Position numbers and translations under genes: made by a program. Shown here piece by piece: positions 17,410-44,459 of a stretch of 64,000 bases of DNA. The notes beneath the pieces were generated by a model that was not told the origin of the DNA, searched no databases, and saw only the letters and a program-made list of their open reading frames with translations. How positions within the stretch are numbered: the stretch's first letter is position 1; each line of letters starts with the position of its first letter. The DNA comes from an uncultured delta proteobacterium (GTDB lineage Bacteria > Desulfobacterota > Binatia > UBA9968): NCBI GenBank assembly GCA_963745035.1, contig CAVUVW010000017.1:160001-224000 (forward strand), given 5' to 3'.

Positions 17410-17508
17410 GAATGCCAACATTTTCGATTCCGATTGCCGATTTTGGATTGTCGGAGTCAGATCGAAATAGCCGTCTAATAATTTCACGCATCCTTCCCGT
17501 CTCTTCAT
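17410..17508 (-). pseudogene. Leader-only remnant of an array unit
   Basis: Shares gattgtcggagt(c/g)agatcgaaatagc and AATCG arms with the U7 leader at about 24490-24560; no SBP body follows. Confidence 0.6.
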
Positions 17509-17548
17509 CCCAACCGCTTACTCACGCCTCTCGCCTCACGGCTCACGC

Positions 17549-18545
17549 CTACTTGATCACCTTGTCCGCTCGCGCCAACACGTTAGGAGGAATCGTCAGA
17601 CCAATCTGCTTCGCCGCAATGAGGTTGATCACGCAGCTCGAACTTTGTCGGCTGTCGACCGGCAGGTCGGCGGGCTTGGCGCCTTTCAAAATCTTGTCCA
17701 CATACGTTGCGGCGTGCTTGCACAGGTCCGCGAAATCATCGCGTCCATAGGACATCAAGTCCGCCGGCTTCGACAAATTCTCTCTGGCTGTAAATCGGCT
17801 GGAAGCCGGTTCTTGCGCCATGAGTTCTACGACCTGGGTTACGGAATGTAAAAGGAGGACCGAGTTCCCCAGCGCAAGAATTGCCTAGCGCGCCCCTTGC
17901 TTGCGGCTCGGAAGGCGTCTCAATATCTTTCGGGACCTAGCATCTCAAGGTATTGAAGCTTCACTCCGAACGTCGGCGCGCGCAAAGCCGCTTTCCATCC
18001 TCTTAGGGACTCGTGGGTTACCCGGAATAGTCGAATTCCCGAGAACGGCCACGCGAGAGAGCCTGGGAACGATCTCTTTCAGAAGCTCCAATTGCTTTCC
18101 GCTTATCTCCGGCGAAAGGTTGAAGTCCTGTGACGTTCCCGCCAGGTCGCGCCAAGCTAGCGACGATGCCATTCCAACAGGATCGAAATCCTGTGCCATG
18201 ACAACGGGAATCGTATTGGTCGCCTCCCTGGCGGCACGGGTTGATCCCGGACCTCCCGTGACGATGATATCGACCTTGAGACGCACCAGTTCAGCCGCCA
18301 GTGCGGGAAGCCGTTCTGACTTTCCATCGCGTTTCGCCTCTCAATGACGATGTTTTTTCCCGGCACATATCCAAGCTCGCGCAGGCCATGGAGGAATGCG
18401 TCGTACCGATCCGAGATAGAGGAATGCGAGGGAGTCAGCGAGATAGCCTATCCGCGGAACTTTCTTCGGCTGCTGCGCCCCGAGCGGACGAGCAAAGCGC
18501 AAAGAGCATGGCGCAAAGCGCTACCGCAGAAATGTTTCGCTTCAT
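17549..18545 (-). pseudogene. Array unit U1, ABC_sub_bind SBP, multiple frameshifts
   Basis: MKRNISAVALCAMLFAL start; family motifs spread over several frames. Confidence 0.8.
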
Positions 18546-18583
18546 TGTTCTCATCTCACGCCTTACGCCTCACGGCTCACGGC

Positions 18584-19570
18584 TCACTGAATCACTTTGA
18601 TCCGCCCGCGCCAGCACTTTCGGCGGAATCGTCACACCGATCTGCTTCGCCGTTTTTAGATTGATCACCAACTCGAACTTCGTCGGCTGCTCGACGGGAA
18701 GATCGGCGGGCTTGGCGCCTTTCAGAATCTTATCGACGTAAAAGGCGACGCGCCGGTAGCTGTCCGCGAGGTTCGCTCCGTAGGACATGAGCCCACCGGC
18801 ATCTACAGCTTCTCGGCTGTCATAAATCGACGGTAACCGGCTCTTTAACGCGAAGCTGCCGCAATGCGTTTTTGGTTATTTGTCTGCCCCTCGCGGGACC
18901 CGGAAAGTACGATCAAAGCGGCAGGGCGCTGCTTGAGCGCGGCGGAATATCTGCTCAGATATCACGCTCGCATCTCGTACCTCCAAAGGTTGGATAGTCA
19001 GCCCTAGGGCAAGGCGCGCTTGGAAGGAGCTTTTTCAATTCTCGTGCATTGGCTGCGGAGTGGCCGGCGGATCAGATAACAGCGACGCGGGCAACTTTGG
19101 GAACCGCTTCCTTGAGAAGCTCCAGCCTTTTACCGGTTATTTCCGCTGCAAGTTTGGAATGCCGGTAACGTTGCCGCCAGGTCGGGCAAGGCTGTCTACA
19201 AACAGGTCGCCGACAGGATCGGTACCCAGCGCCATAACGATGGGAATCGTCTTGGTCGCATCCTTGGCCGCTCGGAGTCCACTGGGTGCCCCTGTGATGA
19301 TGATATCGACCTTGAGACGCACGAGGTCAGCCGCAAGCTCCGGGCAGGCGATCGAGTTTCCCCTCTGCATAGCGGTACTCGATGGCGATGTTCTGTCCTT
19401 CGACGTAACCAATCTCGCGCAGAGCCATGCCGAAAAACCTCGAGACGACCGACATTCGCCGAAGCGGGGCTGTGCCAGATAAGCTATCCGGGGGATTTTC
19501 GTTGGCTTCTGCGCCTTGGCTGAAAAAAAGTTATCATCAAAGAGTAAGTAACCAGAATTTTTGAATTCAT
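18584..19570 (-). pseudogene. Array unit U2, multiple frameshifts
   Basis: MNSKILV start; LVRLKVD...SLARPGG and [14 protein letters not shown] fragments. Confidence 0.8.
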
Positions 19571-19619: not shown

Positions 19620-20622
19620 TCATTTGATTACCGATCCGCTCGCGCCAGGACATTCGGTGGAATCGTCAGACCGATCTGCTTCGCGGTTTTGAGATTGATC
19701 ACGAAATCAAATTTCGTCGGCCCCTCGACCGGTAGATCTGCGGGTTTTGTTCCTTTGAGGATTTTGTCCACGTAAGCGGCGACACGGCGATATATAAAGA
19801 TGTAGTCTGGTCCGTAGGACATGAGTCCGCCAGCTTCCACGAACTCCCTGTCTCCGTACATGGTTGGAAGGCGGCTCTTTCCCGCAAGTTCCGCGATCTG
19901 TGGGTGGTGAATAGCGGTAAGAGGATTCCTCAGAACGAGCAGTGCTTGAGCACGGCCCTTGCTGGCGGCTAGAATGCCGGTTCAATTTCCTTGGGAGTCT
20001 GTACATCTAGGTTTTGGATCTGCAGCCCGAACGTTTTGCGGCAACTTCCGTCTCTTTCAACACTTGTGGGTTGCCGGGGACTTTCGAATTACCGAAGAAA
20101 GCTACACGGGAGAGCTTGGGGATGGCCTCCTTCAGAACCTCCAGTCGCTTCCCGGCCAAGCTCGGCTGAAGTGAGGCAAGCCCCGTGATATTTCCGCCCG
20201 GCCGCGCCACGCTGGCGACGTAGCCCTGATCCGACAGGATCGCTAACGTTTGTAATGACGATGGGGATTGTTCTGGTAGCATTCTTAGCATGCGAGATTG
20301 CCGGACCTGCTGCCCAGATGACCTCAACATTGAGACGCACTAACTCCTCCGCAAGATTGGGTAGCCGGTCCACTTTTCCTTCGGCATAGCGGTATTCGAT
20401 GACGATATTCTTGCCTTCCAGGTAACCCAGATCGCGCATTGCCTGTTGAAATGTCTCGACCGGAAGAGTGCCAGGCGCATCGGCTCTCAGCACGCCTACT
20501 CTGCGGACCTTTGCAGGCTCCTGCGCCGACGCAGAATAGCTAAGCGCAAGGAGCATGGCGCAAAGCGCGATGGAGAAGAGGCTCTTGCTGACGACTGACC
20601 ACTGACTACTGACTACTTTCAT
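19620..20622 (-). pseudogene. Array unit U3, frameshifted
   Basis: [23 protein letters not shown] start; fragments 20089-20622, 20007-20330, 19628-19861. Confidence 0.82.
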
Positions 20623-21605
20623 CGGATCACCTTATCCGCCCGCGCCAGCACATTCGGCGGAATCGTCAGGCCGATCTGCTTCGCCGCTTTCAGATTGATG
20701 ATCAACTCGAACTTCGTCGGTTGCTCCACCGGCAAGATCGGCGGGCTTGGCGCCTTTCAGAATCTTGTCCACGTAAGTGGCGGCGCGCCGGTACAAGTCG
20801 ATGATGCTCACGCCGTAGCTCATGAGCCCGCCGGCTTCCACAAACTGGCTCTGCGGATATATCGCCGGGAGCCGGCTCTTTACCGCGAGTTCTACAATCT
20901 GTGTTCGGTGAGAATGGAGACGCAGCTTGGCACCACATAAGGACTGCGTCAGCCCGCCCCTTGCCTGCGGCTCGGAATGCAGTCTCAATATCCTTTGGAA
21001 CCAGTACGTCTAGGTATTGAAGCTTGCACTCTGAACGCCCCTGCGGCGAGTTCCGTTTCTTTTAACGATTGTGCGTTGCCCGGCTGGGTCGAAGTCCCGA
21101 AGACGGCCACGCGGGAGAGCTTAGGAACGATCTCTTTCAAAAGCTCCAGTTGTTTTCCGCTTAGCTCCGGGCGCTGCGTTGACAATCCGGTAATGTTCCC
21201 GCCGGGTCGCGCAAGGCTGGCGACGAACCCGTTTCCAACCGGATCGGCATCCTGCGCCATGACAATGGGAATCGTAGTGGTTGCTTCCTTCGTGGCACGA
21301 GTCGGTAGCGGACCAGCCGTGACGATGACGTCTACCTTGAGACGCACTAGTTCGGCCGCAAGCGCGGGGAGGCGATCGAGTTTTCCCTCCGCATATCGAG
21401 TACTCAATGACAATATTTTTCCCCTCCACGTACCCAAGCTCGCGCAGACCCTGACGGAATGCCTCGATGCGGGCCGAGACAGTGGAAGGGCAGACAGCAT
21501 TAGGTATCCTATCCGGGGAACTTTCGTTGGCTGCTGCGCCTCGACAGACGAGCAAAGCGCAAAGAGCATGGCGCAAAGAGCAAGGACACGTGATTTTTTT
21601 TTCAT
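20619..21605 (-). pseudogene. Array unit U4, frameshifted
   Basis: MKKKSRVLALCAMLFAL start; stop overlaps U3 start (ATGA). Confidence 0.82.
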
Positions 21606-21662
21606 GGCTTTTTCTCTGTCTCGATCTACTCGACCCTCGACACTCTGACACTCGCCTCCGTC

Positions 21663-22640
21663 TCACTTGATCACTTGATTCGCCCGCTCGAGCACGCGGC
21701 TCGGAATTGTCAGACCAATCTGTTTTGCCGCCTTAAGGTTAATGACGAATTCAAACTTCGTTGCCTGCTGCACCGGCAAATCAGCCGGTTTGGCGCCTTT
21801 CAAGATCTTGTCCACGTAAACAGCCGCGCGCCGATAGAGGTCATCGTAGTCCGCCCCGTAGGACATGAGACCGCCCTCATCGACAAACTCCTTCTGTGGG
21901 TAAATAGCCGGCAACCGGTATTTGCCGGCAAGCTCGACGATCCGCTTTCTTTCGGCGAAAAAGGGGCGAGTGGCGGTCGTCATAATCGCGTCGACCTGCT
22001 TCTGCTTTGCGGTTTGAAAGGCGCTCTCTAAACCTTTGGCGTCGGGTTGAGTCTCGATCTCCTCCAATTTTAGCTTCAGTGCCAGAGCCGCAGGCCTGAG
22101 CTCTTTCAGTTGGAGGTCTGCTGCTATGCCGCCTCCCGGCGGCCGCAGAAGTCCAACTCGGGCGAGCTTGGGGACCGCGTCCTTGAGTATCTCTAGCCTT
22201 TTGGTGTTTAGCTCGGGCGATAAACTCGAGAGCCCGGTGACATTGCCTCCCGGCCGCGCCAGACTGGCAACCAAACCTGCACCCACGGGGTCTCCAGCGT
22301 TCGTCATCACGATGGGGATGTCGTAGTGGTCGCTTTCTTGGCCGCCAACGCCGGCTGCCGTCCCTGCGACCACGATTAGATCAACCTTAAGACGAACCAG
22401 GTCCGCCGCAAGCTCAGGTAGGCGCTCATACTTTTGCTCGGCAAATCGGTACTCGATGGTGATATTCTTTCCCTCGATCCATCCAAGCTTGCTCAGCTCT
22501 TGCCGGAACGCCTCCACGAGGACCGCGCTACCAGAAGCAGTGCTTGTATCCAGGAAACCTATGCGGAAGATTTTCCCTGTCTGCTGCGCCTCGGCGGACG
22601 AGCAAAGCGCAAAGAGCATGGCGCAAAGCGCAGCAGACAA
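21663..22640 (-). CDS. Array unit U5 (ERANQVIK type); open, with a short internally out-of-frame segment
   Basis: 325-aa ORF; GVGGQESDHYD replaces the expected LAAKKATTT, implying compensating indels. Confidence 0.85.
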   Translation of the reverse strand: MSAALCAMLFALCSSAEAQQTGKIFRIGFLDTSTASGSAVLVEAFRQELSKLGWIEGKNITIEYRFAEQKYERLPELAADLVRLKVDLIVVAGTAAGVGGQESDHYDIPIVMTNAGDPVGAGLVASLARPGGNVTGLSSLSPELNTKRLEILKDAVPKLARVGLLRPPGGGIAADLQLKELRPAALALKLKLEEIETQPDAKGLESAFQTAKQKQVDAIMTTATRPFFAERKRIVELAGKYRLPAIYPQKEFVDEGGLMSYGADYDDLYRRAAVYVDKILKGAKPADLPVQQATKFEFVINLKAAKQIGLTIPSRVLERANQVIK

Positions 22641-22693: not shown

Positions 22694-23625
22694 TCACTTG
22701 ATCACCCTGTCCGCCCGCGCCAGCACGCTCGGCGGAATCGTCAGGCCGATCTGCTTCGCTGTTTTCAGATTGATCACCAGCTCGAATTTCGTCGGCTGCT
22801 CCACCGGCAGATCGGCAGGCTTGGCTCCCTTCAGGATCTTGTCCACGTAGATAGGCGACGCGCCGGTAGCTGTCCGCCAGGTCCGCCCCGTAGGACATGA
22901 GCCCACCGGCATCTACAGCTTCTCTGTTGGTGTACATCGACGGTAACCGGCTCTTTAACGCAAAGCCCACGATCCGTTTTGGTTAGCACTCATTAGCGCG
23001 CTCGCGGTCACATAGAGTCCATCCGGGCGCTCCTTGCTCAGCGCAGCAAATACCCTCTCGAAACCGTCCGCATCTCGTACCTCCCAAGACCGAACAGTCA
23101 ACCCCAGCGCACGCGCCGCGACCGGGAGAACCTCTTTCACCTCGACGTACACTGGCCGGATTGGCCGGATCGTAGAGAACCGCGACACGGGCAAGTTTGG
23201 GAACCGCTTCTTTGAGCAGCTCCAGCCGCTTCCCGCCTAGTTCTCTGGAAAGGTTGTAACGCCGGTGACGTTGCCGCCGGGACGGGCAAGGCTTTCAACC
23301 AGGCCTGCCTCGACAGGATCGGACCCAACGCCCAACATAACGATGGGAATCGTCTTGGTCGCATTCTTGGCCGCCCGGATCAGCAAGTCCCCTCCTGCTA
23401 CCACGATGATATCAACTTTGAGACGCACCAGCTCGGCCGCAAGCTCAGGGAACCGATCGAGCTTCCCCTCCGCATATCGGTACTCGATGGCGATGTTCTG
23501 TCCTTCGATGTAGCCGAGCTCGCGCAGAGCCAGCCGAATTGCCTCGGAACGGGTGGAATCGCTAGCTGGATCCGTCCCGATAGATACCCTATCCGCGGGA
23601 CTTTCTTCGGCTGCTGCGCCTCGGC
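22694..23625 (-). pseudogene. Array unit U6, lacks own leader (fused to U7), frameshifted
   Basis: Begins directly at AEAQQPKKVPRIGYL. Confidence 0.8.
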
Positions 23626-24560
23626 GACGCGCCGGTAGCTGTCCGCGAGGTCCGCCCCGTAGGACATGAGCCCGCCGGCATCTACAGCTTCTCTGCTGCC
23701 GTACATCGACGGTAACCGGCTCTTTAACGCAAAGGCCGCGATCCGTTTTCCGTTAGCACCCATTAGCGGCCGCCCGGCGGCACATAGAGTCCATCCGGGC
23801 GCTGCTTGCCCATCGCAGCAAAAACACTCTCGAAACCGTCCGCAGCTCGTACCTCCCAAGGCTGAATAGTCAACCCCAGCGCACGCGCCGCGGCTGGGAG
23901 AACTTCTTTCACCTCGGGTACGCTGGCCGGATTGGTCGGATCGTAGAGAACCGCGACACGGGCAAGTTTGGGAACGGCTTCTTTGAGCAGCTCCAGCCGC
24001 TTACCGCCTAGTTCTCCGTAGTAATGTTTGTAACGCCGGTGACGTTGCCGCCGGGACGGGCAAGGCTTTCAACCAGGCCTGCCTCAACAGGATCGGACCC
24101 AGGGCCCACCATAACGATGGGAATCGTCTTGGTCGCATTCTTGGCCGCCTGGATCCACGGGTCCCCTCCTGCTACCACGATGATATCGACCTTGAGACGC
24201 ACCAACTCGGCCGCAAGCGCGGCGCCCGATCGACGCTTCCCCTCGGCATATCGGTACTCGATGGCGATGTTCTGTCCTTCAATGTGGCCAAGCTCGCGCA
24301 GAGCCAGCCGAATTGCCTCGGAACGGGTGGACTCAATAGCTGGATCGTCGCGACGATAGATACCCTATCCGAGGGACTTTCTTCGGCTGCTGCGCCTCGG
24401 CCACTGCCCCAGCAACGCGAACGCGACAGCGAGAGCGAGAATGCCCGCCATTTTGATTTTGGACCTTCGATAAGACTCAGAACAGGTTTTGGATCTTCGA
24501 TTGTCGGAGTGAGATCGAAATAGCTGCCCGATTATTTCAAGCATCTTCGCATCTACTCAT
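23626..24560 (-). pseudogene. Array unit U7, lacks 3' tail (fused to U6), frameshifted
   Basis: Ends [12 protein letters not shown] then runs into U6. Confidence 0.8.
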
Positions 24561-24591: not shown

Positions 24592-25549
24592 TCACTTGAT
24601 CACCTGATTCGCCCGCTCCAGCACGCGACTCGGAATTGTCAGACCGATCTGTTTTGCCGCCTTGAGATTGATGATGAATTCAAACTTCGTTGCCTGCTGC
24701 ACCGGCAAATCAGCCGGTTTGGCGCCTTTCAAGATCTTGTCCACGTAACCAGCCGCGCGCCGATAGAGGTCATCGTAGTCCGCCCCATAGGACATGAGGC
24801 CGCCCTCATCGACAAACTCCTTCTGTGGGTAAATAGCCGGCAACCGGTATTTGCCGGCAAGCTCGACGATCCGCTTTCTTTCGGCGAAAAAGGGGCGAGT
24901 GGTGATCGTCATAATCGCGTCGACCTGCTTCTGCTTTGCGGTTTGAAAGGCGCTCTCTAAACCTTTGGCATCGGGTTGAGTCTCGATCTCCTCCAATTTT
25001 AGCTTCAGTGCCAGAGCCGCAGGCCTGAGCTCTTTCAGTTGGAGGTCTGCTGCTACGCTCCCGCCGGCCGCAGAAGTCCAACTCGGGCGAGCTTGGGGAC
25101 CGCGTCCTTAAGTATCTCTAGCCTTTTGGTATTTAGCTCGGGCGTTAAACTCGAGAGCCCGGTGACATTGCCTCCCGGCCGCGCCAGACTGGCAACCAAA
25201 CCTGCACCCACAGGGTCCGCAGCGTTCGTCATCACGATGGGGATGGTAGTAGTCGCTTTCTTCGCCGCTAACGCCGCGGTGTCCCTGAGACCACAATCAG
25301 ATCAACCTTAAGACGAACCAAGTCCGCCGCAAGCTCAGGCAGGCGCTCATTCTTTTGCTCTGCAAATCGGTACTCGATGGTGATATTCTTTCCCTCAATC
25401 CATCCAAGCTTGCTCAGCTCTTGCCGGAACGCGTCCACGAGGACCGCGCTACCGGAAGCAGTGCTATTATCCAGGAAACCTATGCGGAAGATTTTCCCTG
25501 TCTGCTGCGCCTCAGACGGCACCACAAAGCGCAAAGAGCATGAGCGCAA
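24592..25549 (-). pseudogene. Array unit U8 (ERANQVIK type, near-copy of U5), frameshifted
   Basis: Fragments 24592-24996, 25053-25235, 25268-25549. Confidence 0.82.
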
Positions 25550-25628: not shown

Positions 25629-26687
25629 TCACTTGATCACCTTATCCGCCCGCGCCAGCACGTTCTGCGGAATCGTCAGGCCGATCTGCTTCGCGGTTTT
25701 GAGATTGATCACCAGCTCGAACTTTGTCGGCTGCTCGACTGGCAGGTCGGCAGGCTTGGCGCCTTTCAGGATTTTGTCGACGTAGGTGGCGACGCGCCGG
25801 TAGCTGTCGGGGAGGTCCGCGCCGTAGGACATGAGCCCACCGCCATTTACATCTTCTCTGCTGTCTCGTCGATGGTAACCGGCTCTTTAACGCAAAGGCC
25901 ACAATGCGTTTTTGGTTAGCATTTAGGAGCGGGCCCCCCGCGACGTAAAGTCCATCCGGGCGCTCCTTACTTAGCGCCGCGAATACCTGCTCGAAACCGC
26001 CCGCAGCTCGTACCTCCCAAGCTTGGACAGCCAACTTCAGGGCGAGAGCCGCGACGTGGAAGGTCTTCTTTCACCTCGACATATTGGCTGGAGTGGCCGG
26101 CTGGTAGATAACCGCGACACGGGCAACTTTGGGAACTGCTTCCTTCAGGAGCTCCAGCCTCTTACCGCCTAATTTTCCGTCGAGATTTGTGAGCCCGGTA
26201 ACATTGACGCCCGGCCGGGCGAGGCTTTCAATTAGGCCTGCCTCAACAGGGTCGTTCCCGGCGCCCACCATAACGATGGGAATCGTCTTGGTCGCATCCT
26301 TTGCCGCCCTGATCCAATGGATCCCTCCCGCTATGATCATGATGTCGACCTTGAGACGCACCAAGTCGGCCGCAAGCTCGGGAAGCGCGCTCGGTTTTCC
26401 CCTCGGAATAGCGGTACTCGAAGTCGATATTCTGTCCTTCTATGTAGCCAAGCTCCCGCAGAGCCAACCGAATTCCCTCAGCGCGAGCGGACTCATGAGA
26501 TGGGTCCCGCGAAGATATGTAGCCAATCCGGGTGAGTTTCTTCGGCTGCTGCGCCAGTGCCACAGCCACAACCAACACGAGCATGTAAACGATTACCGAA
26601 AGCCCCAACCATTTTCGATTTTGGATTGCTCGATTTTGGATTAGCAGATAAAGAAATCAGAATTCGGAGCCACGAGTTTTCACTCAT
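25629..26687 (-). pseudogene. Array unit U9, frameshifted
   Basis: MSENSWLRILISLSANPKS leader; KERPDGLYV-type body. Confidence 0.82.
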
Positions 26688-26731
26688 ACGTTTTTCTCTC
26701 AATCCAAAATCCAAAATCGAAAATCCAAAAT

Positions 26732-27726: not shown

Positions 27727-27768
27727 CTGTTTCACCATCACTCTCTTACGCCTCGACGTGCTCCATTC

Positions 27769-28755: not shown

Positions 28756-28802
28756 CTGTTGCACGTCCCTCGTGCCTGACACTCTGACATTCGCTCACCT
28801 TC

Positions 28803-32199: not shown

Positions 32200-32254
32200 T
32201 TGTCTTGGCGTTGTCAGCGGGAAATGCCGTTAACCCACACGCGCGGCAAATCGA

Positions 32255-34679: not shown

Positions 34680-35664
34680 CTATCGAATCACCTTATTCGC
34701 TCGCTCAAGCACACGGTTCGGAATTGTCAGGCCGATTTGTTTCGCTGCTTTGAGGTTGATAACGAATTCAAACTTCGTCGCTTGCTGCACCGGCAAATCA
34801 GCCGGTTTGGCACCTTTCAAGATCTTGTCCACGTAAACAGCGGCGCGCCGAAAGAGGTCAGTGTTGTCCGTCCCATACGACATGAGACCTCCCTCATCGA
34901 CAAACCCCTTCTGGGTAAATAGCCGGCAACCGGTATTTGACGGCAAGCTCGACGATCCGCTTTCTTTCTGCGAAAAAGGGGCGGGTGGACATCGTCATAA
35001 TCGCGTTGACCTGCTTTTGCTTTGCCGTTTGAAAGGCGCTCTCTAAACCTTTGGCGTCGGGTTGAGCATCGATCTCCTCCAATTTCAGCTTCAGTGCCAC
35101 AGCGGCAGGCCTGATTTCTTTCAGTTGGAGGTCTCTTCCTACGCTGCCCGTTGTCCCCCGCAGAAACCCAACTCGGGCGAGCTTGGGGACCGAGTCTTTG
35201 AGTACCTCTAGCCTTTTGTGTTTAGCTCGGGCGATAAACTCGACAAGCCGGTGACGTTGCCACCCGGCCGCGCCAGGCTCGCAACCAAGCCTGCACCCAC
35301 AGGGTTCCCAGCGTTCGTCATCACGATGGGGATCGTAGTCGTGGCGCTCTTGGCCGCTAATGCTGCTGGGGTCGCTGCGACCACGATTAGATCAACCTTA
35401 AGACGAACCAGCTCCGCCGCAAGCTCAGGTAGCCGGTCATTTTTCCTCTGCAAATCGGGACTCGATGGTGAGATTCTTTCCCTCGCTCCAGCCAAGCTTG
35501 CTCAGCTCTTGCCGTAACCTCTCCAAGCGGTCCGCGATTCTGGAAGTAATGCTATCATCCAGGTAACCTATGCGGAAGATTTTTCCTGTCTGTTGCGCGT
35601 CGACAGAACCGCAAAGCGCATAGAGCACGGCGCAAAGCGCAATTGCAAAAATCTCTCGTTTCAA
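34680..35664 (-). pseudogene. Array unit U16 (ERANKVIR type), frameshifted
   Basis: MKREIFAIALCAVLYAL start; four fragments in track. Confidence 0.82.
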
Positions 35665-35701
35665 TTTCTCACCTCACGCCTGACGCCTCACCACTCACGC
35701 C

Positions 35702-36733
35702 TCACCGAATCACCCGATCCGCCCGCGCCAACACTTTCTGGGGAATGGTGACGCCAATCTGCTTTGCCGTTTTCAAGTTGATTACCAGTTCAAATTTTGT
35801 CGGCTGCTCGACGGGAAGATCGGCGGGTTTGGCGCCCTTCAGGATTTTGTCCAAGTAAGTGGCTACGCGCCGGTGGCTGTCCTCGAGGTCCGACCCGTAG
35901 GACATGAGCCCACCGGCTTCTACAGCTTCTCTGAACGCATACGTTGATGGTAACCGGCTCTGTATTGCAAAGCCCGCGATCCGTTTTTGGTTGGCTCTCA
36001 TCAGAAGGCTCGAAGTCAAGTAGAGCCCATCCGGGCGCTCCTTGTTGACGGCAGAGAACACCTGGTCAAAACCTTCCGCATCTCGTATTTCCCAAGGCCG
36101 AATCGTCAACTTCAGCGCGCGCGCCGCGACTGGGAGAACCTCTTTCAGCTCGAATGTACTCCCCCGACTGGACGGATCGTAAAGAACCGCGACGCGGGCA
36201 ACTTTGGGAACGGCTTCTTTGAGCAGCTTCAGCCGCTTACCGGCTAGTTCTGGAGAAAGGTTTGTAATGCCGGTGACGTTGCCCCCGGGACGCGCAAGGT
36301 TTTCAATTAGCCCTGCCTCGACAGGATCGAGCCCTTGGCCCAACAGAACGATGGGTATTGTGCTGGTCGCATTCTTGGCCGCGCGGATCACTGCGGTCCC
36401 TCCTGCGGCCACAAGAATATCCATCTTGAGACGCACCAACTCGGCCGCTAGCTCCGGGAGCCGATCGACCTTTCCCTCCGCATAACGGTATTCGATGGCG
36501 ATGTTCCGTCCTTCTATATAGCCGAGCTCGCGCAGAGCCAGCCGAATGGCCTCGGCACGGGCAGACTCATTAGTGGGGTCGCCCGCCGATAAATAGCCTA
36601 ACCGCGAGGTTTTCTTCGCCTGCTGCGCGTTAGCGGACGGGCAAAGCGCAAAGAGCACGGCGCAAAACGCGCAGACAACGAGTTTCAGTTTCTTACTGTT
36701 GCCTACCGCCTGTTGCCTGTTGCCTGTGATCAT
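35702..36733 (-). CDS. Array unit U17, intact
   Basis: 343-aa [14 protein letters not shown] leader. Confidence 0.9.
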   Translation of the reverse strand: MITGNRQQAVGNSKKLKLVVCAFCAVLFALCPSANAQQAKKTSRLGYLSAGDPTNESARAEAIRLALRELGYIEGRNIAIEYRYAEGKVDRLPELAAELVRLKMDILVAAGGTAVIRAAKNATSTIPIVLLGQGLDPVEAGLIENLARPGGNVTGITNLSPELAGKRLKLLKEAVPKVARVAVLYDPSSRGSTFELKEVLPVAARALKLTIRPWEIRDAEGFDQVFSAVNKERPDGLYLTSSLLMRANQKRIAGFAIQSRLPSTYAFREAVEAGGLMSYGSDLEDSHRRVATYLDKILKGAKPADLPVEQPTKFELVINLKTAKQIGVTIPQKVLARADRVIR

Positions 36734-37725
36734 CGAATCACTTTATCCGCGCTGGCCAGCACGTTTTGCGAGATCGTGAGGCCTAGCTGTTTCGCCGTCT
36801 TCAGATTGATCACCAGCTCGAACTTCGTCGGCTGCTCCACTGGAAGGTCTGCGGGCTTGGCGCCCTTTAGGATCTTGTCGACATAAGTGGCGGCGCGCCT
36901 GAAACTTTCCGTATCGCTGGATGAATAGGACATGAGGCCACCGGCCTCGACGTACTGTCTGTCCTCGTGTATTGAAGGCAGTCGGTTCTTTACGGCAAGG
37001 GCCGCAATCCGCTTTGGGTAACTTGCGGCCAGCGGACCGGTAACCGAAATGATCGCGCTCGCGCGCCCCTTGGTCGCGGCTTGGAATGCTGCCTCGTAAT
37101 CAGGATTCGGACCGCGCACCTCTAGGAATAAAAACTGCATCTTTAGTGCGCGCGCCGCAGCCTCATAATCTTTGAAAGCAATAGCCACCGCCGAGCTGCT
37201 CGCCTCTCCAAGGACTCCGACGCGCGATATCCCGGGAACCGCTTCTTTGAGCAGTTCTAGCCGCTTTCCGCTCAATTCTCGGATGAGGCCGGTGAGCCCG
37301 GTAATGTTCCCGCCGGGGCGCGCTAGGCTATCGATTAGCCCAGTGGCGACTGGATCCTGAGTTGTCACCATGACAATGGGAGTCGTCTTGGTCGCCTCCT
37401 TGGCTGCGCGGATCGCTGATAGAGATCTAACGACAAGCACATCGACCTTGAGTTGCACGAGTTCGGCCACTTGGTTTGTAATCCGGTCAGGCTTTCCTTC
37501 ACCGTAGCTATACTCGATCAGGATGTTTTTCCCCTCAATGTAACCGAGATCTCGCAGCCCTTGCCGGAATGCTTCGGCGAACGGATGGGGAGAGGTGGGG
37601 GTGGGGCTGACCCTTTGCGCCAGAAATCCTATGCGAGGTACTTTTCCTGTCTGCTGCGCCTCGACAAGAGAAGTAGTTGCCAGAAAGAGAGTTGCTAGCA
37701 GCCTGAGAGTGATTCTCTTGTTCAT
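36730..37725 (-). CDS. Array unit U18, intact
   Basis: 331-aa ORF with signal peptide. Confidence 0.9.
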   Translation of the reverse strand: MNKRITLRLLATLFLATTSLVEAQQTGKVPRIGFLAQRVSPTPTSPHPFAEAFRQGLRDLGYIEGKNILIEYSYGEGKPDRITNQVAELVQLKVDVLVVRSLSAIRAAKEATKTTPIVMVTTQDPVATGLIDSLARPGGNITGLTGLIRELSGKRLELLKEAVPGISRVGVLGEASSSAVAIAFKDYEAAARALKMQFLFLEVRGPNPDYEAAFQAATKGRASAIISVTGPLAASYPKRIAALAVKNRLPSIHEDRQYVEAGGLMSYSSSDTESFRRAATYVDKILKGAKPADLPVEQPTKFELVINLKTAKQLGLTISQNVLASADKVIR

Positions 37726-37763
37726 ATTTTTCTCTTACTCACGCCTCAGCCTGCTGCCTGTTT

Positions 37764-38788
37764 TCACTTGATCACTCTATCCGCCCGCGCCAGCACACTC
37801 GGCGGAATCGTCAGACCGATTTGCCTGGCCGCCTTGATATTGATGACCAACTCGAATTTCGTCGGTTGCTCCACCGGAAGGTCTGCCGGCTTTGCGCCTT
37901 TAAGAATCTTGTCGACATAGGTCGCCGCGCGCCGGGACAAGTCAATAAAGCTTGTGGCATAACTGACCAGGCCGCCGGCTTCGACAAATTCATCCCGTCC
38001 GTACGTCGCCGGGAATTTGTTCTTCGCTGCGAACTCGACGATCCGATTTCTGTGTGCGTTCATCAGCGGACCGCCAGCGATCATCAATCCACCGGGGCGC
38101 CATTTCATGATCGCTTGGAATTGACTATCGAAGTCTTCGGCCTTTGCCAGTTCGAACCTTTGCGTTTGTACGTTTAGCACTCGGGCGGTTGGCTCTATCT
38201 CGTCCACGCCGATCCCTTCGGTGACGTTCGTCAAATCCCTTAAAACCGCCACACGCGAGAGCTTGGGAGTAATTTCTTTAAGCAGCTCCAATCGCTTGTC
38301 ACCGAGATCCCCGCTGACATTCGTAAGCCCCGTGATATTTCCAGCCGGCCGCGCGAGACTGCTGACAAATCCCGACGCCACCGGATCGTTGTCCGACATC
38401 ATGACGATGGGAATCGTAGTGGTCGCTTCTTTGGCAGGGCGGGTCGCTGAACTTCCCGTCGTGACAATCACATCGACGTGGAGATGGACCAGCTCGGCGG
38501 CAAGCTTGGTCATTCGCTGGGCGTCGTTGTCCGCGAAGCGGTAATCGATGGTAATGTTTTGTCCCTCGATGTATCCCAGCTTTCGTAGTGCCTCTCGAAA
38601 TGCTTCGACACGATCTTTTTGAACCGTTGCCCGGTTGAGAGAAAGGAACCCGACTCGGGAATCTTTTTCGCAGACTGCTGCGCCTCGGCGGACGAGCAAA
38701 ACGCAAGGATCACGGCGCAAAGAACGCAAGCAGCGAGCTTCAGATTCCTACTGTTGCCTACCGCCTGTTGCCTGTTGCCTGTGATCAT
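37764..38788 (-). pseudogene. Array unit U19, one frameshift near 38660
   Basis: Leader in 38510-38788 frame, body in 37764-38729 frame. Confidence 0.82.
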
Positions 38789-39759
38789 CGAATCACCCGA
38801 TCCGCCCGCGCCAGCACACTCGGCGGGATGGTCAAGCCGATCTGCTTGGCAGCCTTGAGATTGATAACCAACTCGAACTTCGTCGGCTGCTCCACCGGCA
38901 AGTCGGCGGGTTTGGCACCCTTCAGAATTTTGTCGACGTAGACCGCAGCGCGCTGGAACAACGCTGGGAAGCTCGTGCCGTAAGACATAAGGCCGCCGGC
39001 TTCCACGTACTCCGTGAAGCTGTACATTGCCGGGAGTTTCTGCCTGGCCACCGCTTCTGTGATCAGCTTCCGGTTAAAGAAGATCAATGGATCCGGAAGC
39101 TCGAAGAGTGCCTGCGGTCGGTCCTTCCCAATGCCGGATAAAACCTTTTGAATCTCTTCCTGGTTTCGCGCCTCCAGGGAAATCAATGTAACTTTCAGCG
39201 CCTGCGCTTCGGTCAGACTTTCCTTGTACGCGGCCTGTTGACCCGGCTGGTTCGGGTTCCAGAGAACGGCCACGCGCGAGAGGCGTGGAACAACTTCCTT
39301 CAGTAACTCGAGCCGTTTCCCGGTCAAATCCGGAGCGATATGCGTCAGCCCAGTTATGTTTCCTCCGGGCTTCGCCAGGCTGGCGACGAATCCCGATCCT
39401 ACGGGGTCGGTGACTCCCGCCATGATGATCGGGATCGAGCTGGTTTGTTCCTTGGCGAACCGGATCGCAGGAGTAGCCGAAGAAACGATGACATCGACTT
39501 TGAGGCGAACAAAGTCGGCGACGAAGCCTGGCAAACTTTCCAACTTGCCGTCGGCCCAGCGGTACTCGATCACGATGTTGTGTCCGTCCACGTACCCAAG
39601 CTCGCGCAGCCCCTGTACAAACGCGGTAGCATGATGCCCCGCAGTGGCTTGGGAACCGGCTCCCACATAACCGATCTTTTTCGCTGGCTGCGCCAGGGCC
39701 ACCGCCCCACAGGGGGCCAGAGTCACAAAGATTGCAAACAGTCCAACGAAGCGTTTCAT
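38785..39759 (-). CDS. Array unit U20, intact
   Basis: 324-aa ORF. Confidence 0.9.
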   Translation of the reverse strand: MKRFVGLFAIFVTLAPCGAVALAQPAKKIGYVGAGSQATAGHHATAFVQGLRELGYVDGHNIVIEYRWADGKLESLPGFVADFVRLKVDVIVSSATPAIRFAKEQTSSIPIIMAGVTDPVGSGFVASLAKPGGNITGLTHIAPDLTGKRLELLKEVVPRLSRVAVLWNPNQPGQQAAYKESLTEAQALKVTLISLEARNQEEIQKVLSGIGKDRPQALFELPDPLIFFNRKLITEAVARQKLPAMYSFTEYVEAGGLMSYGTSFPALFQRAAVYVDKILKGAKPADLPVEQPTKFELVINLKAAKQIGLTIPPSVLARADRVIR

Positions 39760-39766
39760 ACCCCGC

Positions 39767-40165
39767 CTATTTTAGATTTCCGATTTTAGATTGCCGATTG
39801 ATCGGAGGATTTCCGTTGCGGTTCTGAAGAGTTCTTATTGATGCTACCGTCATTGCGATGATCTCGTTGGTTTCTTGCAACAACTCCGACAGCCTGGCCT
39901 CAGGTACAAGCCCCGATTCAATCAGTAGTTCCATCCAGTAGGCTGACTCGTCTGCTTCTTCTTCAACTATCCGAAGCTTAGCGATCACATCCGCAGTGGA
40001 CTTGCCGCGACACGCTGCTCGATAGTTAGCGCCGATCGAAGTGCCGGATCGGATCAACTGTCTACCGATCACGTCCGCGGTTCGGTTCTTCGGTAGCGCG
40101 TCGACGACTTTGATGATGCGTAAAGCTAGCTGCTTTGTGCGCTTCTTGAATACGTTTTCATCCAT
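39767..40165 (-). CDS. Four helix bundle protein (23S rRNA IVP-like / Avd-like fold family)
   Basis: FKKRTKQLALRII...GRQLIRSGTSIGANYRAACRGKS...AKLRIVEEEADESAYWMELL. Confidence 0.92.
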   Translation of the reverse strand: MDENVFKKRTKQLALRIIKVVDALPKNRTADVIGRQLIRSGTSIGANYRAACRGKSTADVIAKLRIVEEEADESAYWMELLIESGLVPEARLSELLQETNEIIAMTVASIRTLQNRNGNPPINRQSKIGNLK

Positions 40166-40211
40166 GTATTTTCTCGGCCAATCGAAAATCGGCAATCGAA
40201 AATCGAAAATG

Positions 40212-41257
40212 TCATTTAATGACTTTGTCCGCCCGCGCCAGCACACTCGGCGGAATCGTCAGACCGATTTGCTTGGCCGCCTTGATATTGATGATCAGAT
40301 CGAACTTCGTGGGCTGCTCGACAGGCAGATCGCCTGGCTTGGCGCCTTTCAAAATCTTGTCCACATACGTTGCGGCGCGCCGGTCCAAGATCGGTGATGC
40401 TTGCGCCGTAGCTCATTAACCCCCCGTTGTCGACAATTGTCGAATTGTAGTAAATCGCCGGCAGCCGGTTCTTTACCGCGAGGTCCGGAATCCCTCGGGA
40501 AAAGTTGCCGGGGAAGTTCAGCACGAGGACTGCATCCGCTCGCTCCTTGCTCGCGGTTCGTAATGCAGCCTCGATATCCTTTGAATCTCGTATGTCCAAA
40601 TATTGAATCTGCACGCCGAGCGCGCTCGCCGCGAGTTCCGTCTCTCTTAGCGATTGCGAATTGCCGGGGTTGTTAGACATACCGAGGACCGCCACGCGAG
40701 AGAGCTTGGGAACAATCTCCCTCAGAATCTCCAGTCGTTTTCCGCTTATCTCCTGGGCAAGGTTAGACAATCCCGTAATGTTTCCGCCGGGTCGCGCCAG
40801 GCTGGCGACGAACCCGTTCCCAACAGGATCGCTATCCTGCGTCATGACAATGGGAATCGTAGTGGTTGCTTGCTTGACGGCGCGGGTTGCTGTGGGACCA
40901 CCGGTGACGATGACGTCTACCTTGAGACGCACCAGCTCGGCTGCAAGCGCGGGGAGGCGATCGATTTTTCCCTCGGCAGATCGCCACTCAATGACAATGT
41001 TTTTCCCCTCGACATAACCAAGTTCACGCAGTCCCTGCCGGAATGCCTCCTGCGAACCGCTGCACTGCCGGAACGGGAGTCGGCAGTTAGATAACCTATG
41101 CGCGAAATTTTCTTCGGCTGCTGCGCCGCGGCCACCGCCCCACACATTGCGAATGCGACAGCGAGAGCAACAATCCCCACCAATTTTCGATTTTGGATTT
41201 TAGATTTTCGATTGTCGGAGCAGAGAAAGCAAAGCGCATTCGAGATGTCTTGTGCAT
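40212..41257 (-). pseudogene. Array unit U21, frameshifted
   Basis: AATCG-arm leader; body 40216-41145. Confidence 0.82.
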
Positions 41258-41294: not shown

Positions 41295-42342
41295 TCACTT
41301 AATAACTTTGTCCGCCCGCGCCAGCACGTTCGGCGGAATCGTCAGGCCGATCTGCTTAGCGGCATTCATATTGACGAGGAACTCGAACTTCGTCGCCTGC
41401 TGTACCGGCAAGTCGGCCGGTTTGGCGCCTTTCAAGATCTTGTCGACAAAGTCAGCGGCGCGCCGCCATAAGTCCGTATTGTCTGGCCCGTAGCTCATCA
41501 AGCCGCCGGCCTCAACAAACTCACTGTAGTGGTAGATCGCCGGCAACCGGTTCTTTGCCGCGAAGTCCAACACTTGGCGTTGCTGAGTATTGATAAGTGC
41601 ACCTGTGGTCGTAATGAGCGCCTGGGCGCGTTCCTTTTTCGCTCGTGCGAATGCGCCCTCAAAATCGTCAAGGCTTCGCACCTCCAGCGATAGAAGTTTG
41701 AGTCCCAACGCCTTGGCCGCAGCCTCCATATCTGTGAGGGCCAGGTTTCCCCTCGTTCCACCCGGTTCCCAGAGGAAGGCCACCCGGGCAACCTTAGGGA
41801 AGGCTTCCTTGAGCAGCTCCAACCGTTTGCCATCTAGATCTGGCACCATGAGACTAAGACCGGTGATATTCCCGCCTGGTTGCGCCAGGCTGGAGACAAG
41901 CCCAGTTCCTACTGGATCGGAAGCAGCGGCGAATACGATGGGAATCGTCGCGCTCGCCTTCTTGGCAGCTAATGTAGCGCCGGGGCCGGCTGGTGACGAT
42001 GACGTCAACTTTGAGACGGACCAGTTCGGCTGCAAGGTCAGGCAGCCGTTCGCCTTTCCCTTCTGCATAACGGTACTCAATGACAATGTTTTTTCCTTCG
42101 ACATAGCCAAGCTCGCGCAGCCCTTGGCGAAATGCTTCGACCCGGGCCGAGAGGAAGGACGCGGAGGACGGGATCAGAATTCCTATCCGGTGAATTCTCG
42201 CCGGCTGCTGCGCCTGAACCACCGCCCCGCCAAACGTGACCGCGAGGACGATTGCAAAGAGCCCCGCCCATTTTCGATTTTCGATTTTGGATTCTTAGAT
42301 TGTTGGTCGAATAGACTTCGATCCAAAGATCACTTTCTGCAT
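41295..42342 (-). pseudogene. Array unit U22, frameshifted
   Basis: Fragments 41854-42222 and 41295-42110. Confidence 0.82.
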
Positions 42343-42367
42343 TGCTCTTCTCGCCTCATCCAAAATT

Positions 42368-43429
42368 CTACCGAATGACCCGATCCGCCCGCGCCAGCAC
42401 GCTTCGGCGGTATCGTCGAGGCCGATCTGTTTCGCCGTCTTCTGATTGATCACCAGCTCAAACTTCGTCGGCTGCTCCACGGGGAGATCGGCAGGCTTGG
42501 CTCCCTTCAGGATTTTGTCCACGTAGGTGGCTGCGCGCCGGTAGCTGTCCGCGACGTCCGCCCCGTAGGACATGAGCCCACCGGCATCTACAGCTTCTCT
42601 GGTGTAGTACATCGACGGTAACCGACTCTTTAACGCAAAGCCCGCGATCCGTTTTTGATTAGCAGTCATTAGCGGGCCCGCGATGACGTAGAGTCCATCC
42701 GGGCGCTCCTTATTCAGCCCAGCGAATACCTTCTCGAAACCGTCCGCAGCTCGTGCTTCCGAAGGCTGAATAGTCAACCCCAGCGCACGCGCTGCGACTG
42801 GGAGATCCAATTTTACCTCGAGTACACTGGGCCGATTGGCCGACTCGTAGAGAACCGCGACACGGGCAACTTTGGGAACGGCTTCTTTGAGCACCTCCAG
42901 CCGCTTCCCGCCTAGTTCTCTGGAAAGGGTTGTAAGGCCGGTGACGTTGCCGCCGGGACGGGCAAGGCTTTCAACTAGGCCCGCCTCGACAGGATCGGCC
43001 GAAAGGCCCATCATAACTATGGGAATCGTCTTGGTCGCATTCTTGGCCGCCCGGATCATTCGTGATCCCTCCTGGTACCACGATGAGATCAACCTTGAGA
43101 CGCACGAGCTCGGCCGCAAGCTCAGGGAGCCGATCGACCTTCCCCTCCGTATATCGGTATTCGAAGGCGATGTTCTGTCCTTCTATGTAGCCAAGCTCGC
43201 GCAGAGCCAGCCGAAATGGCTCGGCACGGACGGACTCAGTAGCTGCATCGATCCCCGATAGATACCCTATCCGCTGGACTTTCTTCGCCTGCTGCGCCTG
43301 AGCCACAGCCCCACAAATTGCGAATGCGACAGCGAGAGCAAAGATCCCCACCAATTTTCGATTTTCGATTTTCGATTTTCGATTGCCGGAACAAGAATCG
43401 GAAACTCGCTTCGTCGAAAATACTTTCAT
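42368..43429 (-). pseudogene. Array unit U23, frameshifted
   Basis: MKVFSTKRVSDSCSGNRKSKIENRKLVG leader; fragments 42971-43459, 42295-43119. Confidence 0.82.
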
Positions 43430-43475
43430 GCGTCTTCTCACGTAATCGAAAATCGGCAATCGAAAATCAAAAATG

Positions 43476-44459
43476 TCATCTTATGACGCGATCCGCTCTC
43501 GCCAGCACATTGGGTGGAATCGTCAGGCCGATTTGCTTGGCCGCTTTGAGGTTGATCACCAGCTCAAATTTAGTTGGCTGCTCGACAGGCAAATCGGCGG
43601 GCTTCGCGCCTTTAAGAATTTTGTCTACGTACGTGGCGGCGCGCCGGAACAAGTCGGTAAAACTGACGCCGTAGCTCATAAGCCCTCCGTTTCCCACCCA
43701 CTCGGAGTGCCAGTAAATGACTGGGAGCCGGCTCTCTACCGCGAGTTCTGCAACCTGTGTTCGATGAGAATTGAGGATGGAGCTCGGCAGCACGAGGACT
43801 GCGTCAGCACGTCCTTTGCTAGCGGCTCGGAATGCAGTCCCAATATCCTTTGGACCTAGTACGTCTAGGGATTGAAGCTGCACGTTGAGCGCTTCAGTGG
43901 CCAGTTCCGTTTCTCGTAACACTTGTGCGTTGCCTGGTTCGGTCGAGTTGCCGAGGACACCCACGCGGGAGAGTCTAGGAACAGTCTCCTTCAGAAGCTC
44001 CAGTCGTTTCCCGCTTAAGTCTGAGGAGAGGTTCGACAATCCCGTGATGTTATTACCAGGCCGCGCCAGGCTGGCGACGAATCCATTGCCCACCGGATCG
44101 GTATCCTGCGCCATGACGATGGGAATCGTAGAAGTTGCTTCCTTGATGGGACGGGTTGATTGCGGTCCACCCGAGACGACGATGTCAACCTTGAGACGCA
44201 CTAGTTCAGCCGCGATCGCGGGCAGCCGATCAAATTTTCCCTCTGCATAGCGCCACTCAATCACAATGTTTTTCCCCTCTATGTACCCAAGCTCGTGCAG
44301 TCCCCGCCGGAAGGCCTCGGTGCGGGCGACGTTCGTGGCAGGGGAGCCAGCAGTTAGGTATCCAATCCGAGCAACTTTCGCCGGCTGCTGCGCCTGAGCG
44401 GACGAGCAAAGCGCATAAAGCATGGCGCAAAGGGTCAGACGAAGAGAGTTTTTCCTCAT
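43476..44459 (-). CDS. Array unit U24 (first in transcription order), intact
   Basis: MRKNSLRLTLCAMLYAL start behind AAGGA; no repeat element upstream. Confidence 0.9.
   Translation of the reverse strand: MRKNSLRLTLCAMLYALCSSAQAQQPAKVARIGYLTAGSPATNVARTEAFRRGLHELGYIEGKNIVIEWRYAEGKFDRLPAIAAELVRLKVDIVVSGGPQSTRPIKEATSTIPIVMAQDTDPVGNGFVASLARPGNNITGLSNLSSDLSGKRLELLKETVPRLSRVGVLGNSTEPGNAQVLRETELATEALNVQLQSLDVLGPKDIGTAFRAASKGRADAVLVLPSSILNSHRTQVAELAVESRLPVIYWHSEWVGNGGLMSYGVSFTDLFRRAATYVDKILKGAKPADLPVEQPTKFELVINLKAAKQIGLTIPPNVLARADRVIR

Follow-up and report, generated by a model that had tools for sequence, protein, structure and literature searches.

What would a bacterium gain from two dozen related genes for exported binding proteins set head to tail, and how does such a row of genes arise and change? 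The question is raised by a locus on contig C17 of the draft metagenome-assembled genome (MAG) G000, which comprises 7.43 Mb in 28 contigs with an estimated completeness of 92.6% and contamination of 5.8%. We analysed a window of 64 kb (C17:160001-224000), and positions given without a contig name are those of the window. Among named relatives, those closest to the binding proteins are for the most part MAGs that bear the label Candidatus Binatia or 'Deltaproteobacteria'. A first-pass annotation made from the sequence had described 24 head-to-tail ABC_sub_bind genes on one strand and read them as a candidate integron-analogous diversification system. The row of genes was recovered in full, and the integron analogy failed. 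We lean towards a chromosomal, operon-like array of exported PF04392 paralogues, remodelled by homology-driven exchange, whose products would be ligand receptors reporting mainly to a kinase.

Twenty-four near-full or partial PF04392 (ABC_sub_bind) units were mapped between 17552 and 44516, all on the minus strand, using tblastn with five open copies and a family hidden Markov model (HMM) built from 46 open paralogues. The period of the array is about 1.0-1.1 kb. The five open units tested against Pfam matched PF04392 with E-values of 1e-45 to 1e-54 (155-183 bits, cut-off 25.9), and the profile match spans the whole domain including the C-terminal motif, which places them in PF04392 / COG2984 and not in the TctC family. 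At the N-terminus, the consensus is a hydrophobic stretch followed by A-x-A-Q-Q, and the mature protein aligns end to end with the solved homologues 3LKV, 3LFT and 6HNI. As the first pass had noted for the 64 kb, no ABC permease, ATPase, integrase or transposase family was found among the flank open reading frames (ORFs) scanned (30 of at least 110 amino acids and further ones); the flanks code for metabolic enzymes, NMT1-type binding proteins and carriers of the major facilitator superfamily. The fusion listed at that stage was not recovered, as no joined pair of binding-protein bodies was found in the window. Double PF04392 proteins occur elsewhere in the genome, one of 661 amino acids at C14:51.5-53.5 kb and one as a 694-amino-acid frame at C14:806.8-808.9 kb.

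The array is headed by a putative promoter. About 40 nt upstream of the likely start codon of the first unit (ATG at 44459) lies the sigma-54-type element TGGCACTGTTCGTGCT (TGGCAC-N5-GTGCT, 44515-44500, minus strand). Sigma-54 promoters are defined by GG at -24 and GC at -12, and both are present here at the right distance. An identical or one-base-variant 16-mer heads the syntenic arrays of two congeners (G018 and G015), and the pattern has only 6 matches in the 503 kb of loci scanned. Upstream of this promoter, a GC hairpin followed by a T run resembles a terminator (44721-44765, minus strand). A general scan for promoters and terminators was uninformative (3 promoter-like hits with 7.4 expected; 17 terminator-like hits with 21 expected).

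Arrays of this family also have a recurrent neighbour. The array on contig C14 of the same genome ends 111 nt before a dCache-HAMP-GAF-HisKA-HATPase kinase gene, and 19 of 20 congeneric dCache-kinase loci carry at least one PF04392 unit on the same strand, usually ending just upstream of the kinase. In other MAGs, the arrays at L029 (13 open units), L051 and L045 are flanked by a sigma-54 response regulator and a kinase of this same architecture; at L065, a sigma-54 response regulator is in view beside the array. Further kinase fragments and a gene for a receiver-guanylate/adenylate cyclase follow the C14 kinase, and a similar receiver-cyclase gene adjoins binding-protein units in L064.

Membrane partners, on the other hand, are few compared with binding proteins. 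PF04392 gave 123 matches in this genome, corresponding to about 98 units (52 of them single-piece) in at least four arrays, as against one cognate-type permease. The latter, of the BPD_transp_2 type, belongs to the genome's only operon of this kind (C14:44-56 kb; L017), along with a double PF04392 protein and an ABC ATPase. Partner-switching signalling parts are interleaved there: a STAS protein (412 amino acids) stands between binding protein and permease, and a GAF-SpoIIE(PP2C)-HATPase_c_2 protein comes after the ATPase. At E <= 1e-20, the permease type was detected in only 5 of 31 genomes of the genus; it was not found at this threshold in G014, G004, G007, G005 and G012, which are 92-100% complete and hold 63-135 binding-protein candidates. 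The genus tallies for family carriage, thiolase orthologues, permease and kinase include one unpublished genome, G005, as one row. The family itself was present in all 18 genus genomes searched, with up to 218 candidates, and in none of 7 genomes of a sister family. [quoted passage not shown]

The most conspicuous feature shared by the units is their 3' end. The first pass had pointed out a strongly conserved tail of about 150 nt behind variable bodies and had taken this tail for a site of recombination. In order to compare the two parts, the last 50 codons and the body were aligned in 46 open paralogues of this genome (1035 pairs). The contrast between tail and body was clear: protein identity was 0.84 and DNA identity 0.75 in the tail, against 0.44 and 0.53 in the body. 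The proportion of nonsynonymous differences (pN) was 0.09 in the tail and 0.38 in the body, whereas that of synonymous differences (pS) was 0.72 and 0.73, so that synonymous sites are as saturated in the tail as in the body. Profiles along the gene gave 0.70-0.76 (DNA) and 0.78-0.83 (protein) for the tail, and 0.38-0.66 and 0.22-0.71 for the body. At identical residues, third-position identity was 0.36-0.48 in the tail and 0.29-0.40 in the body. A homogenised tail over a diverged body (tail pS below 0.25, body pS above 0.5) was seen in 0 of the 1035 pairs. At their C-termini, the PDB structures 3LKV (Vibrio), 3LFT (Streptococcus) and 6HNI align with the tail motif, which reads K-G-x-K-P-x-D-L/T-P-V ... 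V-I-N ... A-x-x-x-G-I/L-T-I-P ... L-x-x-A. Judged by these comparisons, the tail is a structural motif of the protein family and not a DNA recombination site; it is kept because the protein needs it, and it is neither conserved nor homogenised as DNA.

The site of the array is variable within the genus. It lies between an NMT1-family binding-protein gene (14468-15460, minus strand), which is kept in congeners, and a thiolase-like gene (45080-46273, plus strand), whose orthologues are 93-97% identical in the genus. We carried out the cross-genome comparison proposed at first pass, anchored on the thiolase gene, for the array side in ten congeners. The site is empty in four of them (G004, G014, G038 and G008), where 175-212 nt separate the thiolase gene from the NMT1 gene. 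There is a 1.4-kb gap in G039, 3 kb with relics in G006 and relics up to the contig end in G037, while G015 has 16 kb with 8 units, and the arrays of G012 (at least 12 units) and G018 (at least 31 units) run to the contig end. In this genome the site measures 29.7 kb. This includes array-side filler (15461-17551) that is absent from empty-site genomes and contains two ORFs with no Pfam match (16015-16554, minus strand; 16902-17381, plus strand).

Syntenic arrays have few orthologous units in common (5 of 24 with a match of at least 80% amino acid identity), and their order is not kept. Within the window, the only recent-looking local duplicates are units 5 and 8 (0.91), units 6 and 7 (0.83), and units 16 and 17, each at 0.81 to unit 8. 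For at least six units, the closest relative (81-85% amino acid identity) sits in another array of the same genome. When pairs of units were aligned as DNA together with their flanking sequence, the boundaries of these similar blocks could be placed: in 10 of 11 informative pairs, the block ended at the stop codon, with identity of 50% or less in the next window (a twelfth pair, 6/7, aligned onto itself and was dropped). Their starts fall 0-150 nt inside the unit, around the point where the signal peptide ends, and the leader is usually outside. Since the blocks end at the stop codon and at the signal-peptide end, the units appear to be exchanged as two modules, 'body + tail' and 'leader + signal peptide'. 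The expectation that units are gained, lost and reordered was thus borne out, with occupancy from 0 to at least 31 units, but in the unit pairs compared the boundaries lie outside the shared tail, where breakpoints had been expected. We infer that ordinary homology-driven duplication, unequal exchange and ectopic conversion would account for these patterns. Contigs of public runs that match the window are short (150-919 nt), and some stem from RNA libraries, which were not taken as transcription. Many of their joints 'skip', 'go back' or turn to the opposite strand, with short sides (20-47 nt) and foreign letters between; circles or deletions were considered, and the joints were read instead as cross-matches to paralogues of related organisms.

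The leaders form a layer of their own. Behind each stop codon, heptamers are repeated in short tandem runs, of which there are a few types (GGCGTGA, AACAGGC, TCAGTAG, ATTTTCG). In several units the start codon overlaps the previous stop, and the repeats code for the charged N-region of the signal peptide. The type B leader of unit 18 is 95%, 88% and 91% identical to those of units 14, 20 and 5 over 80-101 nt, whereas the bodies behind it share only about 50% protein identity. The idea of swappable, repeat-derived leaders therefore stands: they come in discrete types, and a near-identical one precedes diverged bodies. ATTTTCG-type repeats form long hairpins at about six junctions. Inverted heptamer-repeat arms of the same build (39769-39799 and 40179-40210) bracket a four-helix-bundle gene inserted in the array, and therefore the short hairpin leaders look like gene-less derivatives of that cassette. 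Genome-wide, 1154 period-7 repeat arrays were counted, 85 of them inside the binding-protein arrays (1.65% of the genome).

Repeat-armed genes of this kind were also seen outside the arrays. Genes of PF05635 ('23S rRNA intervening sequence protein'), the family of the four-helix-bundle gene, lie between inverted short-tandem-repeat arms with units of 7-9 nt at L099:2114-2640 (G000:C6). Most of the nine PF05635 matches on contig C13 fall at 1.77-1.80 Mb into a 32-kb island (G000:C13:1770001-1802000; L102, L103), which also contains three ParE genes and dozens of 6-9-nt repeat arrays. The PF05635 genes and gene-less hairpins with repeat arms look like a family of hairpin cassettes. Over 26412-26732, a contig of the best-matching public run showed no substitutions and three small indels, each of them within or close to the leader of unit 9 with its heptamer-repeat hairpin; these are either slippage polymorphism or consensus error in low-complexity DNA.

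How much of the array looks intact may depend on how it was assembled. As assembled here, 8 of the 24 units are open. Over the remaining 16 we counted 35 frame changes and 3 same-frame stops, leaving out a frame change in unit 20 that proved to be an overlap artefact. Over all arrays of the genome there are 79 frame changes against 4 stops. The 32 family-invariant residues are kept equally well in interrupted near-full units (0.958) and in open units (0.955). We sorted loci by the style of their contig names, which served as our own indicator of assembly type. On contigs with short-read-assembler names (53 loci), single-piece units make up 137 of the 146 near-full ones, and there are 7 frame changes and 5 same-frame stops; on those named 'contig_' (23 loci), the figures are 58 of 89, 69 frame changes and 6 same-frame stops. 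Indels of 1-2 nt set the window apart from contigs of other runs, taken from soil and rhizosphere, at 12 listed sites (20 more indels exist). At least 8 of the 12 sites coincide with frame-change junctions, where the indels may restore the reading frame. No general assembly fault was apparent, as the window flanks and all 150 listed NMT1 genes look intact. No common motif was seen at the frame-change sites, where homopolymers are only 2-5 nt long, and the arrays did not stand out among bins of low ORF density at a 150-amino-acid threshold (3 of the 32 such bins). We conclude that real decay exists, namely in two relics, in the truncated unit 7 and in the eroded units 1, 2 and 13, and that no more than 16 units are dead. 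The majority of the frame changes probably reflect consensus errors, made where the population is highly diverse; otherwise they would have arisen very recently. As a practical warning, such arrays are riddled with single-base frame changes in contiguous metagenome assemblies, whereas related arrays assembled from short reads are free of them. Pseudogene calls in such regions therefore need raw reads.

These results allow the competing explanations of the locus to be weighed. In the integron-analogous system proposed at first pass, a site-specific recombinase acting in the shared tail would move units of leader, payload and tail, and toxin-antitoxin cassettes would stabilise them. Single-unit blocks with sharp ends that are common to different arrays, an occupancy that differs between species and toxin-antitoxin modules enriched in arrays would all suit such a system. 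Moreover, the suggested genome-wide search for recombinases did return one bona fide integron integrase: the single TIGR02249 match above cut-off (445 bits, cut-off 265), full-length, at C6:42134-43036 (L099:8039-9169, minus strand). However, this gene lies on another contig, about 36 kb from the nearest PF04392 unit there. A repeat search revealed no attC-like repeats beside it and hence provided no positive control for attC structure. The 16 tyrosine-recombinase (PF00589) matches of the genome include none on the 387-kb contig C17. The junctions do not behave like attC sites either: each of 20 junctions, taken as 60 nt of tail and the 90 nt downstream of it, was folded as single-stranded DNA and compared with shuffles, and z ranged from -2.10 to +1.23, with only one at z <= -2. 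There was no common palindrome, and inverted repeats were confined to about six junctions, all of them heptamer-repeat hairpins. Since all 24 units belong to one family behind one shared sigma-54-type promoter, they form an operon-like array and not a set of promoterless, unrelated cassettes. Vibrio superintegrons resemble the array in their long rows of co-oriented units of about 1 kb, in interspersed toxin-antitoxin modules and in a content that varies between relatives. They differ from it in having an adjacent intI, an attC-like palindrome with each unit, unrelated, mostly promoterless cassettes and a recombination site conserved as DNA, none of which was found here; the element shared by the array units is a coding protein motif, conserved throughout the family only as protein and with saturated synonymous sites, and the exchanged blocks end outside it. 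The locus is not an integron analogue, and we regard this explanation as very improbable.

Two further explanations concern the state of the array rather than its mechanism. Dispersed paralogues could have been wrongly joined in a metagenome-assembled draft with 5.8% estimated contamination, and repeats are hard to assemble. Yet body DNA is only about 53% identical between units, so that these are easily told apart. Four separately assembled genomes have arrays at this same site, arrays of 13 and of 8+6 open units lie on contigs with short-read-assembler names, and a 919-nt contig from another study's run matches across unit 16, the MazEF module and unit 17 at 99%. Such an artefact is therefore hardly credible. 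That most of the array is a graveyard of non-functional pseudogenes left by relaxed selection is a more serious proposition, given the 16 interrupted units, the segments missing from units 1, 2 and 7, and tail-only relics, which occur in short-read assemblies too (L036, L024, L048). Nevertheless, the breaks are nearly all frame changes, the interrupted units retain their invariant residues, near-full units in short-read-named loci are almost all single-piece, and contigs of other runs often differ exactly at the frame-change junctions; we consider it quite unlikely. The strongest competitor concerns function: orphan binding proteins might bring many solutes to a common ABC importer, or to a small number of them, in the way proposed for Bug/TTT proteins of Bordetella and Rhodoplanes. 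PF04392 is an ABC-type binding-protein family whose solved relatives come from ABC systems, the genome does hold the complete operon with permease and ATPase on C14, and shared membrane components have been proposed for orphan TTT binding proteins (Rosa et al. 2018, PMC5994714). On the other side, the permease type was not found at the threshold used in near-complete genomes rich in binding proteins, and the arrays instead consistently adjoin the dCache kinase. A transport repertoire is unlikely, if still worth taking seriously.

The most likely reading of the genes and their surroundings is a repertoire for sensing multiple ligands, because a sigma-54-type promoter heads the array, kinase neighbours recur and the cognate permease is rare. 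The proteins would then most likely be periplasmic ligand receptors with different specificities. They may signal chiefly through one common dCache sensor histidine kinase and a sigma-54 activator instead of feeding an ABC importer, and the window would hold a satellite array that has no kinase of its own. The array belongs to an expansion of the family throughout the genus, a soil lineage without cultured members that is labelled Binatia, and would be transcribed from the one sigma-54-type promoter near the thiolase gene. It would grow and shrink by tandem duplication and unequal crossing-over, ectopic conversion would move single 'body + tail' blocks between arrays, the short leader and signal-peptide segment would be exchanged separately, and units would decay to relics. 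Toxin-antitoxin modules and the four-helix-bundle cassette may be small selfish inserts that accumulate in arrays and, as a by-product, may guard against deletion. A bolder form of this idea is a many-to-one chemosensory repertoire, in which dozens of exported receptors with differing ligand pockets would all dock on one dCache kinase that drives sigma-54 promoters, including those of the arrays themselves, while single genes are re-sorted through body-plus-tail and leader modules and toxin-antitoxin modules keep the arrays in place. This form we put forward only tentatively and think it doubtful as a whole. The earlier notion of a shufflable ligand-binding repertoire survives in part: units are modular and the locus is dynamic, but the integron-like shuffling through the tail has to be given up.

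Several observations weigh against the sensing array as we describe it. The sigma-54 pattern is overall not commoner in the window than in shuffles (26 matches with 27.0 expected, at up to two mismatches), and the argument for the promoter rests on its position and on conservation in three genomes. The array in the window has no kinase, regulator or transporter, and its tie to the C14 kinase consists of family membership and promoter type. That kinase is itself split into two overlapping frames in this genome (G000:C14:413986-416929; L019:15986-18929; also L020:2537-5946), while 13 orthologues are whole. Should the breaks in the 16 interrupted units be real, the greater part of the array would be without function. 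The homologous-recombination mechanism is deduced from block boundaries, and the public contigs are short pieces with many ambiguous joints.

Expansions of orphan binding proteins have a precedent. The TTT family (Bug/TctC) is described as expanded in Bordetella, Cupriavidus and Rhodoplanes sp. Z2-YC6860, with 434 genes and a largest array of nine; array members are at most 50% identical and often have their nearest relatives outside the array, and besides transport, sensing is discussed as another possible role (Rosa et al. 2018, PMC5994714). Both expansions comprise dozens to hundreds of exported paralogues, many in tandem, with very few membrane partners; in both, identity within arrays is about 50% or lower, the nearest copy often lies elsewhere, and a signalling role is discussed. 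They differ in that the present family is PF04392 (ABC type), in another phylum, with arrays of 24 to at least 31 units as opposed to the nine given there. Here there are also the sigma-54-type promoter and kinase context, the toxin-antitoxin inserts and the repeat-built leaders.

One binding protein paired with one Cache-like-domain sensor kinase is the arrangement of LuxP-LuxQ, TorT-TorS and AioX-AioS-AioR, the last of which has a sigma-54 regulator. In those systems, as in the C14 array and the congeneric kinase loci but not inside the window, an exported binding-protein gene adjoins a membrane sensor kinase (here dCache-HAMP), and the sigma-54-dependent response regulator of the Aio system has its like in L029, L045 and L065. 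Unlike them, 6 to more than 25 diverged paralogues stand beside one kinase here, and satellite arrays such as that of the window lie far off. A keyword-level literature search found no published account of PF04392 arrays. The locus is real and striking. Its kind, the expansion of an orphan binding-protein family, is known; new are the family, the length of the array, the promoter and kinase context and the repeat-built leaders.

The units, all on the minus strand, are numbered against the direction of transcription, so that unit 25 stands next to the promoter. It is open (43479-44516; listed ORF 43476-44516, with the likely start at 44459), and its body is 70% identical to the kinase-adjacent C14_28. 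Unit 24 (42371-43426) has one frame change and a hairpin-type leader. Unit 23 (41298-42276), also with one frame change, is the likely orthologue of unit 7 of G015 (85% amino acid and 86.7% nucleotide identity), and unit 22 (40215-41240) has two frame changes. The next four units are open: unit 21 (38788-39768; ORF 38785-39759), unit 20 (37767-38729; ORF 37764-38729), unit 19 (36733-37731; ORF 36730-37725), the stop codon of which overlaps the start of unit 18 (ATGA), and unit 18 itself (35705-36742; ORF 35702-36733), which has the type B leader built of AACAGGC heptamers. Unit 17 (34683-35667) has three frame changes, and contigs of other soil runs show indels at two of these sites, 34909 (+TC) and 35218 (+C). 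Unit 16 (32851-33954; ORF 32848-33954) is open; it has a hairpin (33811-33949) and is extended by a long stretch at the N-terminus. Tail-only relics had been noted at first pass and were found: unit 15 (32073-32201) covers HMM columns 326-368 and abuts the start of unit 14, and a tail end of 51 nt (29812-29862) is accompanied by a repeat-armed hairpin (arms 29872-29916 and 29964-30008), the two together occupying 29812-30008. Between these relics, unit 14 (31040-32082) has one frame change and a type B leader 95% identical to that of unit 18, and unit 13 (30019-31019) has three frame changes and one TAG, with 27 of 31 invariant residues kept.

In the promoter-distal half, unit 12 (28815-29683) has three frame changes, and unit 11 (27772-28782; ORF 27769-28782) is open and closest to C14_06 in another array (81% amino acid identity). 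Units 10 (26735-27753) and 9 (25632-26733) have two frame changes each, with one TGA in addition in unit 9, which starts with a hairpin leader (26611-26733). Unit 8 (24595-25537), with two frame changes, is the recent duplicate of unit 5 (body 91% identical at the amino acid level). The truncated unit 7 (23623-24416), with three frame changes, has no tail, and its HMM match ends at column 316. Unit 6 (22697-23625) combines five frame changes with 32 of 32 invariant residues, and contigs of other runs show indels in it at 23146 and 23253. Unit 5 (21666-22640; ORF 21663-22640) is open from a TTG inside the signal peptide. Units 1-4 (17552-18429, 18597-19526, 19631-20616 and 20622-21693) are all interrupted, and units 1 and 2 also have segments that are no longer recognisable.

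Three inserts reported at first pass were identified by their Pfam families. Two lie on the plus strand, an Unstab_antitox antitoxin with a ParE toxin (PF09720 and PF05016; 32290-32824) and an RHH antitoxin with a PemK/MazF toxin (PF01402 and PF02452; 34021-34608). Both are type II toxin-antitoxin modules, with adjacent small genes of known families. The third is the four-helix-bundle gene (PF05635; 39767-40246, minus strand; domain match 39848-40147). Arrays of this genome contain 4 of its 17 toxin genes (2 of 3 PemK, 1 of 9 PIN and 1 of 5 ParE) in the 1.65% of the genome that they occupy. Similar genes fill gaps of other arrays: RHH+PIN and PIN_3 in the C14 array, PemK, FitA-like RHH and DUF2283 in the C2 array, PemK in G018 and in G015, two PemK, two PIN_3 and MazE in G012, and PIN genes within L036 and L062. 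The window PemK is only 23-26% identical to those of other arrays. MazF modules as one conserved component of the arrays were ruled out on this ground, and as the PemK copies are mostly unrelated, they arrived independently. The analogy to the stabilising cassettes of superintegrons is fair as a description of a possible effect; it implies no integron mechanism. Other inserts were a 546-amino-acid reverse transcriptase (RVT_1) in the syntenic array of G012 (L011:10713-12353) and a split IS5-like DDE transposase (DUF772 and DDE_Tnp_1) in the C14 array (L018:12769-14078).

A second binding-protein family, NMT1/THI5-like (PF09084), is even more expanded in this genome, with 453 candidates at first look. 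In a sample of 150, all scored as near-full-length with frames of at least 260 amino acids, one with a stop; these genes are dispersed over all large contigs. The window contains three (4926-5873, 13355-14398 and 14468-15460), and others are inserted within PF04392 arrays (C14, G018, G015, L038). In the left flank (8759-13430), genes for hydantoinase A and hydantoinase B adjoin the three NMT1 genes in a block kept in congeners, and the hydantoinase B gene ends in an acetone-carboxylase gamma-like tail.

So far, a single other family has been known to expand into orphan binding proteins in this way, to a purpose that is still debated; the present family forms arrays of 24 to more than 30 genes. 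A hot spot that is empty in sister species, a conserved promoter and a recurrent kinase neighbour make the question of whether such proteins transport or sense directly testable, and the same holds for how one kinase could read many receptors. If the many-to-one repertoire is true, bacteria would have their own counterpart of receptor gene families that evolve by birth and death.

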